The position numbers were made by a program, and so were the translations under genes. The notes beneath the pieces were generated by a model. The model was not told the origin of the DNA. It searched no databases and was given only the letters and a program-made list of their open reading frames with translations. A stretch of DNA of 64,000 bases from Escherichia phage T4. The stretch lies in the sequence record MZ375356.1. One strand, written 5' to 3'. Positions 3,348 through 21,392 of the stretch are shown one piece after another; the first letter of the stretch is position 1, and each line of letters starts with the position of its first letter.

Positions 3348-4352
3348 TTAACTTACCAACTCAATCCAAGCTGGACGAAGTACATCTTGTACCATTTTAA
3401 CTAATTCCTTTTTAATCAAAGAAGGATTATCTGCTTGAGTTAGAGTAATACCTTCACGAGAAGTTTCTTCCAAAATATCTTGAACAGTTAGCCCCATCAC
3501 CTTTCCAAAATCCTTTGGACCAATTTCGCCAATTTTAGAAATAACGTTATTTACGCGGTTCAGTGTAACGTAACAAGCTAAAATTCCCACCAATTTGTTA
3601 TCAGCTTCTGATAGCTCAACTTTAGCTTTAATAGGCTTATCAGACTTTTTCTTTTCACTAAATTTAGAGTTCTTGCATTTAATCGCTACACGATTTCCAT
3701 TACGAAGCCAAGAAGGATAACAAGGTTTCAATACATATCCTTCAGCAGTAAATACTTCGCCTTTTGCTTCGGCATTCCAAACGCATTTATTTGCATCAAC
3801 TAATCCAGCATGGTCTACTGTAAAATTATAATCTTGGACGACAGAATCTAAATCATTTGGCAATTTAATAAGCTCTTCAAATTTACCGCGACCTAAAAGT
3901 GGAGCCATTTTAAATTTAAATGTATTACAGAATGATTCCATCATATAATCATCTACATAAGTCACATCACCGCTTTCTGTAGTAACAATAATGTCAAATA
4001 CATAAAAATCTTTATCACCATAATCAACATTCTTCTGAATGCCAGGTCCAGCGAATTCGCCAAAGACTTGATAAGATACAACCGCTGAGGTTTCCATAAT
4101 ATCTTGTACAGCTTTAATGGAATCAGCATAATTCTTCAAAATAATTTCATACCCAAAGAAATCTTCAGCAGGAAGAATCGGTCCAGTGCGTTTAGCGCAA
4201 GTCACTTTATCACGCTCAATAATCAATGAGAAATTTGTGCCGTGAATCTTTTCACGAGCTACCCACTCCCCACCAGTCAATCCCAAGCTATAAAGTTTTT
4301 CAATAAATTTAGAGTTGTAATGATTTTCAAGACTGCTATACTTTTTAAACAT
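3348..4352 (-). CDS. rnlB: RNA ligase 2
   Basis: 334-aa ORF starting [16 protein letters not shown] with KIHGTN nucleotidyltransferase motif; matches T4 Rnl2. Confidence 0.95.
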
Positions 4353-4361
4353 AATTAATCC

Positions 4362-4640
4362 TCAAAATGTAATTTCTAACCAATCACCATCACGCTGATC
4401 ACTATTGACTTTAAAGCTGAATCCTTCTTTTCTCAGCCAATCACCAATTTCTTCTGTAATCAATTTATCACGAGCAATACAATAATAATTAAAATGTGTT
4501 TTACCTTGTTCAGCTGCTTTATTAGCAAGTTCTGAAAAATCTTTAATAAAACACTCTAGCTTAAACTGTTTACTTTTTAATGCTTTTTCGCGTAATTGAT
4601 TAGCAAAAGATTCATTTTCATAAAGATCATACTGTTCCAT
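4362..4640 (-). CDS. 24.2: hypothetical protein 24.2
   Basis: 92-aa ORF, position between rnlB and hoc. Confidence 0.6.
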   Translation of the reverse strand: MEQYDLYENESFANQLREKALKSKQFKLECFIKDFSELANKAAEQGKTHFNYYCIARDKLITEEIGDWLRKEGFSFKVNSDQRDGDWLEITF

Positions 4641-4842
4641 TTTTCACCTTTTTATTGATATGTCTTTTTCTATAGACAACTTTTTCTCGAGTTTCAAATT
4701 TATTCTTAGCAGTCATAGCTCGAGCCCATAATACAGCCACTTCTTTTGCCTGTAAGTTTAATTCACGAGCAATTTCAATGAATGACTTTCCAGACTCATG
4801 AAGAGTAAACACCACAACCTCAGTTCTCATAATCAATCTCAT
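4627..4842 (-). CDS. 24.3: hypothetical protein 24.3
   Basis: 71-aa ORF, position. Confidence 0.6.
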   Translation of the reverse strand: MRLIMRTEVVVFTLHESGKSFIEIARELNLQAKEVAVLWARAMTAKNKFETREKVVYRKRHINKKVKNGTV

Positions 4843-4894
4843 GTTATCGAGTTGGTGCCATTATATACATCATTTTCTGATTGTGTTTTGTGTG

Positions 4895-4927
4895 CTTTCA
4901 AAATGAAGAAAGGGGCCGAAGCCCCTT
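4895..4927 (-). terminator. hairpin terminator downstream of hoc remnant
   Basis: GGGGC-TTCG-GCCCC on minus strand followed by T-rich run. Confidence 0.6.
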
Positions 4928-5481
4928 ATGATAATGATACTTCATTAGAAGTAACGCTTAGTGCATCATAATCTGTCGCGGTTACTTGGGCTACGCATTT
5001 AATTCTTTTTACTCCACTTGTAGTTGGAGTATAGCTAAATGTAGAGTTAGTTTCTCCACCAACTTGTGAATCATCTACATACCACTGATACGTAGCAGAT
5101 GCTCCATCAGGTTGAGAAGCTAAGGCAGCAGTAAATTGAACTGGGGTTCCAATCACTCCAGCCGCAGGACTAGCAGGAGTTACGGCTAAGGTAGTCGTCT
5201 GTGTCTTATTTTTAACTGTGATAGTTGTTGTCGCTTCAGCCGTTTCCGGGCCTCCTTCAGAAAGTGTATTTGTTGCAACTACTTTAATAGTCTTTTGACC
5301 GGCAGGTCCTTTTAGCATAACTAAAAGTTGCTTCAGCTCCATCTTGTGGAACATTATCTACGCTCCAAGCATATGTAATAGTTCCGCCTCCAGTTTGACC
5401 ACTGGGTGTAGCAGTAAACTGCTTAGTTTCATCAATAACCCCTGTAGGTGTTTTAGGAGTTATATCAACTGTAAAAGTCAT
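4926..5481 (-). pseudogene. hoc: Hoc outer capsid protein, frameshifted after ~55 codons and lacking C-terminal half
   Basis: ORF 5284..5481 begins MTFTVDITPKTPTGVIDETKQFTATPSGQ then changes frame; ORF 4926..5354 continues with Ig-like domain sequence and stops 83 nt before 24.3; total ~190 codons versus 376 aa remembered for T4 Hoc. Confidence 0.8.
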
Positions 5482-5490
5482 AAGTTATCC

Positions 5491-6171
5491 TTATTTTAAT
5501 GTTACGAAAGAAGAGTTGCGTGTTTCACGAATTAAAACTGATCCATCGCGATTAATGTAATAAATTAAGCTAAATAAAGTTTGGTGTGCTGACGCATGTT
5601 CAAAACTAGTTGGGTGAGATTTCCAATCAGGAGTTTCAGCAATCCATTGATAAATCCACCAAGGAACAGTACAGAATCCTGGATTTTTTCCAATCAGTTG
5701 AAGATTCGGACTAAAGTTTTCCGGAAGAGTAAATACAGACGGCTTTTCAGATTCAATAATCTCAGCTACAGCCTGTTCGAATTTTTCTTCAACAAAAGGA
5801 GTATCTTCAATCAAAACATCGGTATTTTCAGGAATTTTATCCGTTTCTACTACTTCAATTTTAATGTCAGATTTAATCGGAGAATCAATCAGAAGTGCTG
5901 CTTCTGGATTGACTTCTTCATCGTCATATTTTAATCCCTCTGCGGCATCAGCAGCATCAATTAAGTCTTTAATAGATAACCCATCAGTCTCTGGCATAGG
6001 TTCACTAGCGAGCTTCTGGAGGGCTTCTTCAATATCAACAACGATATTATCAAAAGATTTATTCTTTTTGACCTTTATACCAAACTGTTCAGCATATTCA
6101 GCTAATTTAGCTTTAGCTTCTTTGTTATCATCAAGAGCCTTCAGCTCTGCAATATAATCTTTATCTATCAT
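5491..6171 (-). CDS. inh: Inh, inhibitor of prohead protease
   Basis: 226-aa ORF adjacent to hoc as in T4. Confidence 0.7.
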   Translation of the reverse strand: MIDKDYIAELKALDDNKEAKAKLAEYAEQFGIKVKKNKSFDNIVVDIEEALQKLASEPMPETDGLSIKDLIDAADAAEGLKYDDEEVNPEAALLIDSPIKSDIKIEVVETDKIPENTDVLIEDTPFVEEKFEQAVAEIIESEKPSVFTLPENFSPNLQLIGKNPGFCTVPWWIYQWIAETPDWKSHPTSFEHASAHQTLFSLIYYINRDGSVLIRETRNSSFVTLK

Positions 6172-15932: not shown

Positions 15933-16897
15933 TGTATTCTTTAGAGGAATTTAATAATCAAGCAATAAACGCAGATTTCCAACGTAATAATATGTTTAGC
16001 TGCGTTTTTGCGACAACTCCATCAACTAAAAGCTCTTCGTTGATAAGTTCAATTAGCAACTTTTCTTATAATAACTTGGGCCTAAATTCAGATTGGTTAG
16101 GATTAACTCAAGGTGATATTAATCAGGGAATTACCACGCTAATTACAGCTGGCACACAAAAACTGATAAGAAAATCAGGAGTCAGTAAATATCTTATTGG
16201 TGCCATGAGTCAACGTACAGTTCAAAGTTTATTAGGCTCATTTACAGTTGGTACATATTTAATTGACTTCTTTAACATGGCATATAACTCATCTGGATTG
16301 ATGATATACTCTGTAAAAATGCCAGAGAATAGATTATCCTATGAAACTGACTGGAACTATAATTCTCCTAATATTCGTATAACCGGAAGAGAATTAGACC
16401 CTTTGGTTATTTCATTTAGAATGGATTCAGAAGCTTGTAACTATCGTGCAATGCAAGACTGGGTTAACTCCGTTCAAGACCCAGTAACTGGACTGCGTGC
16501 TTTGCCACAAGATGTCGAGGCAGATATTCAGGTTAATCTTCATTCTCGCAATGGATTACCTCATACTGCGGTGATGTTCACCGGATGCATTCCAATATCA
16601 GTGAGCGCTCCTGAGTTATCATATGATGGAGATAACCAAATAACTACATTTGATGTTACTTTTGCGTACAGAGTGATGCAGGCTGGAGCAGTTGATAGGC
16701 AAGCTGCGCTTGAATGGCTTGAATCTGCTGCTATAAATGGTATTCAAAGCGTTCTCGGAAATAGTGGAGGTGTTACTGGACTATCTAATTCGCTTTCACG
16801 ACTTAGTAGATTAGGGGGAACTGCAGGAAGCATTTCAAACATTAATACTATGACAGGAATTGTCAATTCGCAGAGTAAAATATTAGGAGCAATATAA
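15932..16897 (+). CDS. 54: baseplate tail-tube initiator gp54
   Basis: 321-aa ORF. Confidence 0.9.
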   Translation: MYSLEEFNNQAINADFQRNNMFSCVFATTPSTKSSSLISSISNFSYNNLGLNSDWLGLTQGDINQGITTLITAGTQKLIRKSGVSKYLIGAMSQRTVQSLLGSFTVGTYLIDFFNMAYNSSGLMIYSVKMPENRLSYETDWNYNSPNIRITGRELDPLVISFRMDSEACNYRAMQDWVNSVQDPVTGLRALPQDVEADIQVNLHSRNGLPHTAVMFTGCIPISVSAPELSYDGDNQITTFDVTFAYRVMQAGAVDRQAALEWLESAAINGIQSVLGNSGGVTGLSNSLSRLSRLGGTAGSISNINTMTGIVNSQSKILGAI

Positions 16898-16900
16898 CAA

Positions 16901-16928
16901 TGGGGACCGAAAGGTCCCCATATTTTTA
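16901..16928. terminator. bidirectional hairpin terminator between gene 54 and alt.-3
   Basis: TGGGGACC-GAAA-GGTCCCCA flanked by T-runs on both strands. Confidence 0.7.
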
Positions 16929-17216
16929 TTTACGGAATGAAATGAAAGCAGCAACTGAAGCAACTAAACTGTCTTCAATATAAACTTCAATTTTTACAGG
17001 AGCTTCTGACTCAAATTTACCTGTTACTACACCCTGAAAAATACTTTCAGTCTGTTCTGGCTTTGAAAAATTTTCAGAAGGAAAAATTCCGAACTTTTTA
17101 TCTGTTCCAAAAATTTTGATAAATTCATCGTAAACCGCTTCGTTAAAAGCATTATCAGCAGGAATAACGCCTTCAACTACAAGTTCTTGACCTAAAAAGC
17201 GTAAAGAAGATTTCAT
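16926..17216 (-). CDS. alt.-3: hypothetical protein alt.-3
   Basis: 96-aa ORF, position. Confidence 0.55.
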   Translation of the reverse strand: MKSSLRFLGQELVVEGVIPADNAFNEAVYDEFIKIFGTDKKFGIFPSENFSKPEQTESIFQGVVTGKFESEAPVKIEVYIEDSLVASVAAFISFRK

Positions 17217-17223
17217 TTTGTGT

Positions 17224-17278
17224 TCCTCATGTTATGTTAGTAAGACTACTATAACACAACACGAGGGACTTGTAAACT
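17224..17278 (-). promoter_or_regulatory. T4 early-type promoter plus leader for alt.-3 (55-bp element repeated at 30437..30491)
   Basis: minus strand GTTTAC -35, 18-nt spacer, TATAGT -10, then RBS; near-identical copy upstream of alc. Confidence 0.55.
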
Positions 17279-17452
17279 ACATTTTGAACTTTTTAGTACG
17301 CGTAATAGGCATGCGTCGATTTTATACTGTTTCATTGTTTGAAGAGCAGTATCAAAAACAGCATTAATGACACCAATTGGATTTCCACCCAAGTTTTTAA
17401 GCTTAACTAATGATAGTTTCTCATTAACACCTATCATTACGATATGCATCAT
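17249..17452 (-). CDS. alt.-2: alt.-2, degenerate paralog of Alt residues ~64-126
   Basis: MMHIV...KQYKIDACLLRVLKS aligns to Alt MMHIV...RQYKIDACMLRILKS. Confidence 0.6.
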   Translation of the reverse strand: MMHIVMIGVNEKLSLVKLKNLGGNPIGVINAVFDTALQTMKQYKIDACLLRVLKSSKCSLQVPRVVL

Positions 17453-17634
17453 TTTATCGCCTGGTTTAACGTTTTATTTGTATCACCGCCAGAGGTGTAT
17501 GTACAAAATCTAAATCCAGGAAGTACACTTTCTTCACCGGCTTGAATAGCAAAAATTTGTGGTATTTTATGCTTAGGATTTAAGTTAACAACCGGCGCCG
17601 AAGCGCCGTCAAATAATTCTGTAATAAGTTCCAT
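17449..17634 (-). CDS. alt.-1: alt.-1, degenerate paralog of Alt N-terminal ~60 residues
   Basis: MELITELFDG...PGFRFCTYTSGGDTN aligns to Alt MMELITELFDE...PGFRLCTYTSGGDTN. Confidence 0.6.
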   Translation of the reverse strand: MELITELFDGASAPVVNLNPKHKIPQIFAIQAGEESVLPGFRFCTYTSGGDTNKTLNQAIK

Positions 17635-17637
17635 GAT

Positions 17638-19686
17638 TTATCCTTGAACGAACTTGTAAGGCATGTTTGCAATATCTATGCAAGACGCAATAATTCCAAG
17701 AGATGATTCTACTTTCTGTTTAACATTTGATGAAACAAATGATGCAAAGTCAACTCTATCTTCTATATCACCTGTCATTGTAACCAATTCACCAGTTTCC
17801 ATTAAATGGTCTCCGTCATAGATTACCGATTCGGTGAGTTCTTCTGTGGTCATAACTTCAGCTTGAATAAGCTTGTTGTTAGTTTTAACTGTTCCATCAT
17901 TGTAAGATGCATCGGTTATTTTATTAACTTTGACCATTAATCCACGTGGCAAAATGACTTCCATTTCATTTGAAGGCGCTAAACTTCCACCGGGTAAAAC
18001 AACATTGACCTTATCAGCCCCAGTAATAACCCATCCAATTCCAACTAAATTATCGCTAGAATTTACAAGTCCTTCATCAGTTTTATCAATAGAAACGCTT
18101 AAACGCTTTTCGTCTGGTAAAACACCTATAGATGAATCAGTCATCCAAGTACCAAAAATATTTGGATATAATGATGTTGACACAAAGTTTCTAAAATAAA
18201 AAACTCGATTTTTTACCATTGCTTCGTATATTGAAGGTAACATTCGTTGTGAACGATACAAAGTAATACCTTTTGGTAATCGTTCACCATTTTTAAAGGC
18301 TGAATCTAAATTATCAATAGCTTTTTCTATGTCAGATGCTGTCAAAATACTTGTACGCTCATCTGGATTATATAATCCCAAAAGAGCATTATTTATGTCT
18401 ACATATCCTGAACCTACGTATTCACGAATTCCGCGTTTTTGCGCTGGTGTGTATTTAGATGAATCTTTATTTTCGACTATAGGATGTAATGACCATCCAG
18501 CGGTAAGAGCATATCCACGTAATTCTCTTCGAATAATCTTTGTTTTTATTGCATTCCAAGAATTTTGTACTAACTCATTTGCAGCATCTTGGTTTAAATG
18601 CGAATGTTTGTTAATATTTCTTTCAAACCAAGCACCCTTATATTTTTCTAAAGTATCATCGACGATAGAAGCAATAGTTTCTAAGGTTTTTATTGAAGTA
18701 ATAGATTCTTTTCGTAATCTTTCTAAAGCTTTATTTTTTATTTCTGCGTTAATAATGGATTCTTTATCTTCAGGAATTATAGAAGCTTCTCTGAATGCCA
18801 TCCCAGCTGTAACACTGCTAAGAGCATTCTCTAGTGCAAATCCTGAAGTAGAAATTACCGTTAATTCATTAGAATCAGAAATTAAAGGCGCGTCCGCTGG
18901 TTTATTTAATTCGGCCGCTGAAGCCTCAAATTTTTGAAACATTGGTGTTTCAAATCTAGAAGATTCCAATGACTGACTTTGCGCAATTGCTCTACGGGAA
19001 ATTTTAACTTTAACGATTACAGCTTGGTCAGAACGTTTATCATTTTCTTGCGCAATAGATGCTGCAATTGCCTCATTTTTAGTTACTTGAGCCCCAGTAT
19101 CTTTATTGATATAAACATCACCGACCTTCGATTCAACTTTAGTAAAGAGCTCGGTACTAATTTCCGGAACTCCTGGAATGTCTTCTAGTGATACATTTTT
19201 GCGATGTATAAGAATATATGCATACTTTTTATCGTAATCCCAGAGTTCCTTAAGAAGGACGTATCTACCACCTGAACGACTACGGATAAGTCTATCAGCA
19301 ATAACTTGAATTTGTCGAGCTTGGCCAGCAGTTTTAGACTTAAGAATACGGAGCATACAGGCATCAATTTTATACTGGCGCATTGTTTGCATTGCAACAG
19401 TAAAAACTGAATTGATATAATTAATTGGGCTTGGACCAAGACCTTTTAATTTAGCAATTGAACCTTTAGCAGTTAATGTAAAAGGAACAATATGCATCAT
19501 TTTATCGCCCATCTTTAAATCACGATTAGTATCACCTCCAGATGTATAGGTACATAAACGAAAGCCTGGTTGTTCAATTGCATCATCAACATGAACTGAA
19601 AAAATTTGCGGTATTTTCTTCTTTGGATATAAGTTTGTAATTGGAAGAGTAGTATCTTCGTCAAATAATTCTGTAATAAGTTCCAT
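17638..19686 (-). CDS. alt: Alt ADP-ribosyltransferase (packaged, injected)
   Basis: 683-codon ORF (682 aa from second Met), position before gene 30. Confidence 0.9.
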   Translation of the reverse strand: MELITELFDEDTTLPITNLYPKKKIPQIFSVHVDDAIEQPGFRLCTYTSGGDTNRDLKMGDKMMHIVPFTLTAKGSIAKLKGLGPSPINYINSVFTVAMQTMRQYKIDACMLRILKSKTAGQARQIQVIADRLIRSRSGGRYVLLKELWDYDKKYAYILIHRKNVSLEDIPGVPEISTELFTKVESKVGDVYINKDTGAQVTKNEAIAASIAQENDKRSDQAVIVKVKISRRAIAQSQSLESSRFETPMFQKFEASAAELNKPADAPLISDSNELTVISTSGFALENALSSVTAGMAFREASIIPEDKESIINAEIKNKALERLRKESITSIKTLETIASIVDDTLEKYKGAWFERNINKHSHLNQDAANELVQNSWNAIKTKIIRRELRGYALTAGWSLHPIVENKDSSKYTPAQKRGIREYVGSGYVDINNALLGLYNPDERTSILTASDIEKAIDNLDSAFKNGERLPKGITLYRSQRMLPSIYEAMVKNRVFYFRNFVSTSLYPNIFGTWMTDSSIGVLPDEKRLSVSIDKTDEGLVNSSDNLVGIGWVITGADKVNVVLPGGSLAPSNEMEVILPRGLMVKVNKITDASYNDGTVKTNNKLIQAEVMTTEELTESVIYDGDHLMETGELVTMTGDIEDRVDFASFVSSNVKQKVESSLGIIASCIDIANMPYKFVQG

Positions 19687-19714
19687 CATATCCTCTCTAG
19701 TGTTTATTCTATTC

Positions 19715-19722
19715 TATTTATA
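19715..19722 (-). promoter_or_regulatory. late promoter TATAAATA (minus) upstream of alt
   Basis: TATAAATA on minus strand 26 nt upstream of alt ATG. Confidence 0.6.
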
Positions 19723-19727
19723 AAATT

Positions 19728-19745
19728 AAAGGCCCGAAGGCCTTT
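19728..19745 (-). terminator. hairpin terminator after ORF 19744..19932
   Basis: AAAGGCC-CGAA-GGCCTTT followed on minus strand by T-rich run. Confidence 0.5.
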
Positions 19746-19932
19746 AATAATCTATTGGTAAGAGAGTACGATATATTTCAAACTTTGGACCTTTTTCATA
19801 AGCATCAAATGTTTCTGTGAATTTATTATAAGCATATGCATCTATAAATTCAATCATGATTTGTGATACAGAAGTAGAAACATCTCCACCTTCTTTTTGA
19901 GCCACGACAATTGTTTCTAAGTAAGCTTTCAT
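19744..19932 (-). CDS. small hypothetical protein between alt and gene 30
   Basis: 62-aa ORF, overlaps gene 30 stop. Confidence 0.45.
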   Translation of the reverse strand: MKAYLETIVVAQKEGGDVSTSVSQIMIEFIDAYAYNKFTETFDAYEKGPKFEIYRTLLPIDY

Positions 19933-21392
19933 AGACCAGTTACCTCATGAAAATCACCAAATACATCTTCGAATGTATTAGCTTTAGTTTTATCTTCACG
20001 TAAACGAATCGCAATCGGAAGAAATAATTTAACGTAATCAGTGCGGCCATCAGATTTTAACCAACCGTTGCATTCGCACTCTAGAATTTTTCCAATATAA
20101 TAATTTTGGTTTTCCATAATGCGAGTACGGTCAAGTTCATGCGATTTTACACCGGCTTTATCTTTTAAGCCTGAACCAGCATTTACCTTAATTTTTCCAC
20201 ACTCTGACTCAAGAATAAATCCACCCGCTTTAGTAGGGTCTTTACGGTGAGGATAAATTCCTACAATTTTTAAATCAACATCAATTACTTCTTTAAATTT
20301 ATAAAGATTTTTTGAACGAGCATTTTCCCATAATCCATCGATATTTTTGAGAATAATACCTTCAAGACCTTGGTCAATATACTTTTTATAAATTACCTTA
20401 GCTTCATCTAGGTTATTTACTACCTGGTTTTCAATTAAAATTACTTTATCATATCCAGATGTCATTTGTTCTAGTTTAGAAAAACGTACATCATATTTCA
20501 AACGAAATGCAGGAAGACTGTATATTTCTACCAACGGGACATAATCCCAGACCTGAAACTTCATGCATTGTGCTTCTTTTTCAGAAATGGTTCCCTTTAA
20601 AGATTTATTGGCGATTCCATTAGAAGCAGTACGTGATTCAGCTACTTCGGCGAATTCTTTAGCTTTACTGTTTTCAGGATAAGCATCAAAAAGAAAATCT
20701 AGGCCTTCTGGCTCCTTTTTAACTTGCTCATGGTATACCAATTCGCCATCAATCAACACACCTTCTGGATGAATCTGGCGGGCTTCAGCGGTCATTTTAA
20801 TTAACTCTTCCTTAAGAAGATCTAATCCTAGATATTCATTACCAGCTCGTGATAAAAGACGAACATCATCTAATTCATCACCTCTAACTTCAGCAAAACA
20901 CCGAGCTCCATCAGCTTTTAACTGAGCAAAGGCTGGAAATTTGATATTCTTATTAATGCCTTTTTCATCATAAGAACTTGCGAGCATTTGAGGTTGTTCA
21001 GGAATTAAACCTGGCCAAACTTTGTTTGCAATAGATACTGAAGCACCACATTCAAGGTCTCGCATCATCACTCGACGCAAAACTTCAACATCATCTTTTT
21101 TACCATCGGTGATATATCCAGTTAATTCCTCAATTGCTGCATTTCCAGTCAATTTCCGAGTAGCTAATGTGAATTCAATGAAGTCAAGCATATCGGTAAG
21201 AGTCAACATTCCAAAACTCTGGGTAGCAATACCAGGTTTAGGCCATTTCTTGATATAATACTGTAACCCACGAGAATAAGTCAGACGATATACTCGTTTA
21301 AGCAATTCATTATCTTTATTCTTTTCAAGAATTGCTTGCTTCTGTTTAGTTGAACCAATAGATGCTATTTCGTTCAGAATTTTAAGAATCAT
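19929..21392 (-). CDS. 30: ATP-dependent DNA ligase
   Basis: 487-aa ORF with KADGAR adenylation motif; matches T4 DNA ligase. Confidence 0.95.
   Translation of the reverse strand: MILKILNEIASIGSTKQKQAILEKNKDNELLKRVYRLTYSRGLQYYIKKWPKPGIATQSFGMLTLTDMLDFIEFTLATRKLTGNAAIEELTGYITDGKKDDVEVLRRVMMRDLECGASVSIANKVWPGLIPEQPQMLASSYDEKGINKNIKFPAFAQLKADGARCFAEVRGDELDDVRLLSRAGNEYLGLDLLKEELIKMTAEARQIHPEGVLIDGELVYHEQVKKEPEGLDFLFDAYPENSKAKEFAEVAESRTASNGIANKSLKGTISEKEAQCMKFQVWDYVPLVEIYSLPAFRLKYDVRFSKLEQMTSGYDKVILIENQVVNNLDEAKVIYKKYIDQGLEGIILKNIDGLWENARSKNLYKFKEVIDVDLKIVGIYPHRKDPTKAGGFILESECGKIKVNAGSGLKDKAGVKSHELDRTRIMENQNYYIGKILECECNGWLKSDGRTDYVKLFLPIAIRLREDKTKANTFEDVFGDFHEVTGL

Follow-up and report, generated by a model that had tools for sequence, protein, structure and literature searches.

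Open reading frames alt.-1 and alt.-2 of Escherichia phage T4 as a probable 5′ remnant of a second, full-length alt paralogue

The two small open reading frames (ORFs) alt.-1 and alt.-2 of Escherichia phage T4 are, on the strength of sequence comparisons, very probably one pseudogene that preserves the 5′ part of a second, full-length paralogue of the ADP-ribosyltransferase gene alt, originally in tandem with it. We hold with equally high confidence that an old full-length tandem duplication was followed by a 1,699-bp deletion between 9-bp repeats, and then by neutral decay that included a homopolymer frameshift. The likeness of both ORFs to alt was already recorded in the T4 RefSeq notes and by Nolan et al. 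(2006); in the part available, the RefSeq notes explain alt.-1 plus alt.-2 as an old duplicate, corresponding to the first part of alt, that has acquired a stop codon and a new start. In the literature searched we found no earlier statement that the T4 ORFs are the deletion remnant of a full-length paralogue, the nearest database notes being those for Sf21 gp189, with an N-terminus like that of T4 Alt.-1, and for phage ime09, in which the full-length gene is named alt.-2. The similarity is already known, and its bearers make up an ordinary pseudogene remnant.

Gene layout and similarity to the N-terminus of Alt

The sequence analyzed is a 64-kb stretch of DNA (the window); megablast of its positions 16900-19700 retrieved OZ209023.1 with 100% identity and NC_000866.4 with 99.9% identity, indicating that it belongs to Escherichia phage T4. 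ORF names were taken from the T4 RefSeq annotation and coordinates from the ORF list of the window. Alt residues are numbered here on the 683-aa ORF, counted from the first ATG, the annotated start (682 aa in RefSeq) being the second ATG, at window position 19686. The genes and the terminator-like site of the region are:

19929-21392, minus strand: gene 30, DNA ligase (ORF list)
19744-19932, minus strand: alt.1 (ORF list)
17638-19689, minus strand: alt, from the first ATG (683 aa), the intact injected ADP-ribosyltransferase and reference copy of the comparison
17449-17634, minus strand: alt.-1, 61 aa; codons 1-54 of the lost paralogue, then seven out-of-frame codons and TGA
17249-17452, minus strand: alt.-2, 67 aa; codons 61-116 of the lost paralogue, followed by 11 novel residues across the deletion junction
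16926-17216, minus strand: alt.-3, 96 aa, DUF5498 (Pfam PF17602, E=1e-64)
16900-16921, no strand assigned: bidirectional terminator-like hairpin in the gap between alt.-3 and gene 54 (two-strand scan; an annotated terminator in phage e11/2)

Genes 54 and 48 are on the plus strand and convergent with the alt-side genes. The alt ORF matches Pfam PF03496 (E=6e-36) at residues 375-615 and PHROG 802 (E=1e-262), and begins with ATGATG at 19686-19689, that is, with two in-frame ATGs; a Shine-Dalgarno sequence, GAGGA, precedes the first by only 1 nt and the second by 4 nt, and the six-residue propeptide reported for Alt (MELITE) is also consistent with a start at the second.

The window is a resequenced T4 that matches OZ209023.1. 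Across 5.8 kb its only differences from NC_000866.4 are transposed dinucleotides and small G/C indels (17584-17585, 16918-16919, 16703-16704, 16582-16583, and 16593), which look like old sequencing errors in the reference. One is an AC/CA difference in codon 17 of alt.-1 (N vs. T), a codon that reads AAC in 14/14 other junction carriers examined as well as in Sf21 and phage 107. The others are two additional G in the stem of the terminator and, both in gene 54, a GC/CG difference and 3 extra nt that make gp54 321 instead of 320 aa long.

Smith-Waterman alignments (BLOSUM62) paired alt.-1 with Alt residues 2-63 (36/62 identical, 58%; score 180, z=36, against 29 ± 4 for 500 shuffles) and alt.-2 with Alt residues 64-118 (34/55 identical, 62%; score 172, z=33). 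At the DNA level, positions 17310-17644 matched 19358-19694 with 68.9% identity over 341 nt (E=2e-28). The resemblance to the Alt N-terminus anticipated in the original prediction is therefore sound: in the comparison with shuffled controls that it had proposed, scores are around 33-36 standard deviations above the shuffles. The position directly downstream of alt is also confirmed. Conversely, the interval originally assigned to the duplicate (16926-17634) does cover alt.-1 and alt.-2 but is too wide, because it takes in alt.-3, an unrelated DUF5498 gene that aligned to Alt with a shuffle-level score (z=1.1).

Profile searches gave the same picture, with PHROG 802 (Alt-like ADP-ribosyltransferase) matching alt.-1 over profile positions 2-60 (E=5e-19) and alt.-2 over positions 64-120 (E=8e-20); a Pfam scan of the two ORFs returned no match, the C-terminal PF03496 domain being absent. 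The T4 remnant and Alt (NP_049811.1) thus share a paralogous N-terminus, 58-62% identical over some 116 residues, and the same six-residue propeptide; however, whereas Alt (682 aa) contains a PF03496 domain and is found among the late proteins, the remnant is devoid of the catalytic domain and its protein is not detected.

The N-terminal module of Alt-type proteins is about 240 residues long in homologues, and the remnant retains only the first ~116, less than half of it, split over two frames. A profile-free HMMER search with Alt residues 1-240 against 1.84 billion representative proteins gave 71 clusters, most of them of 600-710 aa and with a single aligned block of ~235-240 residues. Short homologues comprising only the N-terminal part (141-183 aa) were few among the representatives and could be either real genes or fragments; some of them (P0032, P0072, and P0075) end in frameshift-like junk. 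A word-indexed protein search with the same query gave only 5 near-identical or partial matches, and no solved structure matched Alt by sequence. PF26846 is precomputed on the N-terminal region of Alt, and was not reported by our Pfam scan. An AlphaFold2 model of Alt 1-240 made without alignment (mean pLDDT 46, and below 50 for every residue from 1 to 117) was uninformative on domain boundaries.

The full-length paralogue and the deletion junction

Shigella phage Sf21 and Escherichia phage 107 contain a second full-length gene of 2058 nt (685 aa) between alt and alt.-3. In alt and over the first ~350 nt of this second gene, T4 is colinear with both phages at ~97% identity, and colinearity resumes ~20 nt before the stop codon of the paralogue; gene alt.-3 is kept downstream of both the intact and the truncated paralogue and was found in all the relatives fetched. 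A total of 402 phage records, those of T2, PP01, phiD1, and ime09 among them, contain the paralogue DNA missing from T4 with at least 80% coverage and 90-99% identity, and the eight paralogues that we fetched (from Sf21, phage 107, and six further phages) are all uninterrupted 2058-nt ORFs. The product from Sf21 contains a PF03496 domain (E=6e-20) and is 41% identical to T4 Alt from end to end, the alignment being strongest over residues 1-237; its record describes gp189 as [quoted passage not shown] (YP_009619003.1).

The remnant occupies the same site and strand as the paralogues Sf21 gp189 (YP_009619003.1), T2_202 (BBC14817.1), and "alt.-2" from ime09 (YP_007004572.1), and shares with them the start context, the MELITE N-terminus and 96-98% protein identity over codons 1-116. 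By tblastn, residues 1-56 of the Sf21 paralogue matched window positions 17634-17467 with 96% identity, and residues 55-116 matched 17473-17288, in another frame, with 98% identity. Unlike the intact paralogue, the remnant lacks 1,699 bp (codons 117-679, with the whole ADP-ribosyltransferase domain) and contains a 1-nt frameshift, so no enzyme can be made from it. In the 64-kb window, the deleted segment is matched only by diverged sequence in T4 alt (70% and 87% identity).

The paralogue spans positions 3573-5630 in the Sf21 sequence (L001) and 253-2310 in that of T2 (L018). The 685-aa product has ITE at residues 4-6 and LIE, LEE, and LME motifs near its C-terminus, a pattern that suggests processing by gp21 as in Alt. 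We found no study of the targets of this second paralogue in the literature searched.

Base-level comparison with the intact genes resolved the lesions in T4 and the adjacent sequence as follows:

17472-17475, minus strand: frameshift lesion, a run of four adenines (A4) that is A5 in 8/8 intact paralogues and in the deletion carriers SG1 and SYGD1
17288-17296, minus strand: deletion junction, with the sole surviving copy of CTAAAAAGT (comparison with Sf21 and phage 107)
17277-17287, minus strand: last 11 nt of the paralogue coding sequence, TCAAAATGTAG (once ..F K M stop), read out of frame by alt.-2
17248-17276, minus strand: early-promoter-like site, GTTTACA, a 17-nt spacer and TATAGT, with TG (10/12 consensus matches)

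In Sf21, the missing DNA is bordered by the 9-bp direct repeat CTAAAAAGT, whose two copies (L001 positions 3912 and 5611) are 1699 bp apart, in codons 114 (phase 0) and 680 (phase 1) of the paralogue. Because 1699 is not divisible by three, the frame of alt.-2 overruns the old stop of the paralogue, TAG at 17277-17279, and ends at another TAG inside the promoter-like sequence upstream of alt.-3. Homology of alt.-2 to Alt accordingly stops at its residue 56, and its last 11 residues are read from the 3′ end of the lost gene, in another frame, and from the putative promoter region of alt.-3.

A further lesion, in which AATAAAAACG has lost one A, leaves the A4 run in T4 and causes both the alt.-1 stop and the split between alt.-1 and alt.-2. 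The frame break that the original prediction had set between the two ORFs does exist, but not at the ORF boundary: since it falls at 17472-17475, alt.-1 ends with seven residues (TLNQAIK) read out of frame, and in alt.-2 the frame with homology reaches seven codons (NVKPGDK) upstream of the ATG, which overlaps the alt.-1 stop (ATGA). The description of both as decayed alt-type ORFs was apt. Sequencing error as the cause of A4 was ruled out by several independent T4 sequences and by the presence of the run in 14 of 16 carriers of the deletion.

T4-like phages repeatedly have extra alt-derived ORFs, partial or split, between their DNA ligase gene and gene 54. In Aeromonas phage Asfd_1, genes 258/259 (L024:2976-4885) are a split paralogue upstream of a full-length alt, with an N-terminal ORF of 212 aa (Alt 4-198) and an ADP-ribosyltransferase ORF of 418 aa; in GEC-3S, BN201_0188 (L025:6041-6865) is an ORF of 274 aa downstream of alt comprising only the transferase part and matching Alt 414-594. 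Likewise, partial alt copies were described in 44RR (44RRORF188c) and RB49 (RB49ORF183c) (Nolan et al., 2006). These cases are independent events with other breakpoints, and none of them contains the T4 junction.

Decay, expression and the fate of the stump

The T4-type junction was found in 90 phage records, and an exact-pattern scan of IMG/VR for it retrieved 2 contigs only, so that the lesion survey is drawn mainly from GenBank phage records. We aligned 16 junction carriers (two T4 sequences, 12 other phages, and the 2 IMG/VR contigs), which were picked from the match list and are not a random sample. The junction is identical in all 16, and we infer that the deletion had a single origin. 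The A5-to-A4 loss occurs in 14/16, the exceptions being SG1 and SYGD1, whereas a GAA-to-TAA stop at codon 6, which takes out the glutamate of the cleavage motif, is present in six (SG1, JEP6, SP21535, HY03, slur03, and pSe_SNUABM_01). Additionally, HY03 has a 7-bp tandem duplication within alt.-2, and F25 has lost one A in the A-run of the junction, a further 1-nt deletion. The reading frame of alt.-2 is open in 14 of the 16 carriers, and only SYGD1 retains an unbroken ORF of 128 codons.

Sequence variation was distributed very differently in intact and truncated genes. Of the variants that codons 1-116 show among the eight intact genes, 34 are synonymous and 2 nonsynonymous (departure from neutrality, p=1.5e-20), and the intact second paralogue is thus under strong purifying selection. 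The remnants show 15 synonymous and 12 nonsynonymous variants, the stop included. Among those found in remnants only, 11 are nonsynonymous and 2 synonymous, which agrees with the 3.56:1 ratio of neutral sites (binomial p=0.75) and shows that selection is relaxed. Remnants and intact genes differ significantly (Fisher, p=4e-4 for all variants and p=2e-7 for those specific to remnants), these counts being of alleles rather than independent events, in a small, non-random sample and with recombination among phages blurring the order of events. Homology to an intact gene, disabling lesions and relaxed selection, three of the attributes of a pseudogene, therefore coincide in the remnant.

Some GenBank records are mislabelled: stump ORFs of 67-128 aa from SG1, JEP6, VEc20, SP21535, F25, RPN226, pSe_SNUABM_01, and SYGD1 appear as "ADP-ribosyltransferase" or "RNA polymerase-ADP-ribosyltransferase", though the catalytic domain is deleted; this mislabelling spread from N-terminal similarity alone.

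The T4 late-promoter consensus, TATAAATA, is found upstream of alt at 19715-19722 (minus strand). A terminator scan found no minus-strand terminator-like site between alt and the hairpin at 16900-16921, which marks the end of a transcription unit comprising alt, alt.-1, alt.-2, and alt.-3. Between alt.1 and the alt late promoter there is a GC-rich hairpin, AAAGGCCTTCGGGCCTTT, followed by T-rich sequence (19728-19745, minus strand), which is terminator-like in appearance and was not reported by the consensus scan. The early-promoter-like site at 17248-17276 is situated directly after the old stop of the paralogue and upstream of alt.-3, and contains the tail and stop of alt.-2; from its motifs it may function as a promoter. 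This is consistent with published time-resolved data, in which alt.-3 is early for both RNA and protein, the transcripts of alt, alt.-1, and alt.-2 are "middle", and Alt protein is "late" (Wolfram-Schauerte 2022, PMC9697503, Table S2). In the same proteome the alt.-1 and alt.-2 proteins are "NA", that is, not detected, which is weak evidence because shotgun proteomics easily misses small proteins.

The stump is still transcribed because it is placed between alt and alt.-3 on the same strand. Some translation is plausible, given that alt.-1 keeps a Shine-Dalgarno-like AAGGA and the MELITE start, and that the ATGA overlap is typical of translational coupling; the peptides LFDGASAPVVNLNPK and IPQIFAIQAGEESVLPGFR belong to alt.-1, and NLGGNPIGVINAVFDTALQTMK to alt.-2. 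Nevertheless, the stump probably yields no stable, selected protein.

It had been supposed that the Alt N-terminus is the part removed at head maturation, which is wrong for the stretch in question. According to Ali et al. (2017; PMC5694885), Alt loses six residues from its N-terminus, with cleavage after ITE-6, and 63 from its C-terminus, with cleavage after LTE-619; Kuhn and Thomas (2022; PMC9026906) also give a very short N-terminal propeptide, of 7 residues, and a feature note in X15811.1 gives one of 6. Since only the six N-terminal residues are removed, the ~125-residue stretch stays in mature Alt. As in Alt, alt.-1 starts with MELITE-L and therefore contains the gp21 cleavage motif (L/I-x-E).

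These features bear on a possible co-option of the stump, in which alt.-1 and/or alt.-2, or the 128-aa form, would enter the prohead core via the Alt N-terminus or modulate the packaging of Alt. We consider this improbable, in spite of an alt.-1 start identical to the Alt propeptide with its ITE motif, a Shine-Dalgarno-like sequence, the ATGA coupling overlap and detectable transcripts, an alt.-2 frame that is open in most carriers, the unbroken SYGD1 ORF, and the existence of separate PHROGs families for alt.-1 and alt.-2. The stop at codon 6 in 6/16 carriers, together with the disruption of alt.-2 in HY03 and F25, argues against any conserved role; remnant-specific changes occur at the neutral ratio, the protein was not detected (PMC9697503), and the cut lies inside the conserved ~240-residue module. 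Moreover, head targeting by the six-residue propeptide alone is not reported in the literature searched, and products of alt.-1 and alt.-2 are not listed in the available parts of the head-composition papers (PMC5694885, PMC9026906). The earlier proposal of head-targeted peptides is consequently weakened by the independent lesions, the neutral substitution ratio, and the failure to detect the products in a proteome in which Alt and alt.-3 were both detected. Some room is left for T4 itself, because its alt.-1 retains the exact MELITE sequence; a more specific version, still harder to credit, is that an alt.-1 peptide or a low-level alt.-1/alt.-2 fusion would be made late, enter the prohead core, and tune Alt packaging or act as a small injected factor.

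Proposed history of the alt locus

Returning to the pseudogene, the comparisons suggest the following history. The T-even (Tequatrovirus) ancestor would have contained two adjacent Alt-type genes, each with an N-terminal module of ~240 residues and a C-terminal ADP-ribosyltransferase domain. Slippage or illegitimate recombination between the 9-bp repeats CTAAAAAGT of the second gene would then, in one lineage, have removed 1699 bp, so that codons 1-116 ran on in another frame into the final 11 nt of the gene, and the deletion allele would then have spread through T4-like genomes. Devoid of the catalytic domain and cut midway through the conserved N-terminal module, the stump would have evolved neutrally, and we infer that it lacks a function. 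T4 and most other carriers would have lost one A from the A5 run, splitting the stump into alt.-1 and alt.-2, and some carriers other than T4 would have gained the codon-6 stop, the 7-bp duplication or another 1-nt deletion.

The direction of the change is that of a deletion, because the long form is fully homologous to Alt and T4 keeps the extreme 3′ end of the paralogue; the long form is also the majority state, with 402 records vs. 90 for the T4-type junction. Likewise, the full-length duplication is old and the truncation later, since the stump shows ~97% DNA identity to the 5′ end of the paralogue and only 69% to T4 alt. The original prediction, in contrast, contemplated a tandem duplication of just the first ~125 codons of T4 alt, followed by divergence and a frame break. 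Such a partial duplication agrees with the alignment of the stump to Alt residues ~2-118 alone and with the RefSeq wording, "a duplication of the first part of gene alt", but it is very improbable: besides the closer identity to the paralogue and the greater frequency of its intact form, the last 11 nt and stop codon of the paralogue persist after the junction, and in the intact genes the 1699 bp absent from T4 have a direct repeat at either end. The ORFs are instead what is left of a 685-aa paralogue after an internal deletion, and the suggestion of a "recombination relic", also made at first, came close to the truth.

Least credible of all is that programmed -1 frameshifting on the A-run next to the alt.-1 TGA (ATAAAATGA), where at the alt.-1 stop the Lys tRNA could slip from one AAA to another that overlaps it and reading would continue into alt.-2 (ATG ATG CAT), fuses both ORFs into a regulated product, because the break is a simple 1-nt loss with respect to the intact genes, is absent from SG1 and SYGD1, coexists elsewhere with an upstream stop codon, and shows neither an in-frame canonical X XXY YYZ heptamer nor the conservation pattern of a recoding signal. 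Even taken together, co-option, programmed frameshifting, and partial duplication are unlikely.

The finding carries little weight beyond a tidier annotation: alt.-1 and alt.-2 would be a pseudogene, and not two hypothetical proteins or "ADP-ribosyltransferases". Were co-option true, the recurrent N-terminal-only Alt fragments of T4-like phages would be a selected class rather than debris. As a pseudogene, the pair indicates that laboratory T4 lacks a paralogue of an injected enzyme that T2 and most of its Tequatrovirus relatives keep under strong purifying selection, and the alt locus, with a junction resolved to the base, is a clear small case of birth-and-death evolution in the host-takeover genes of phages.
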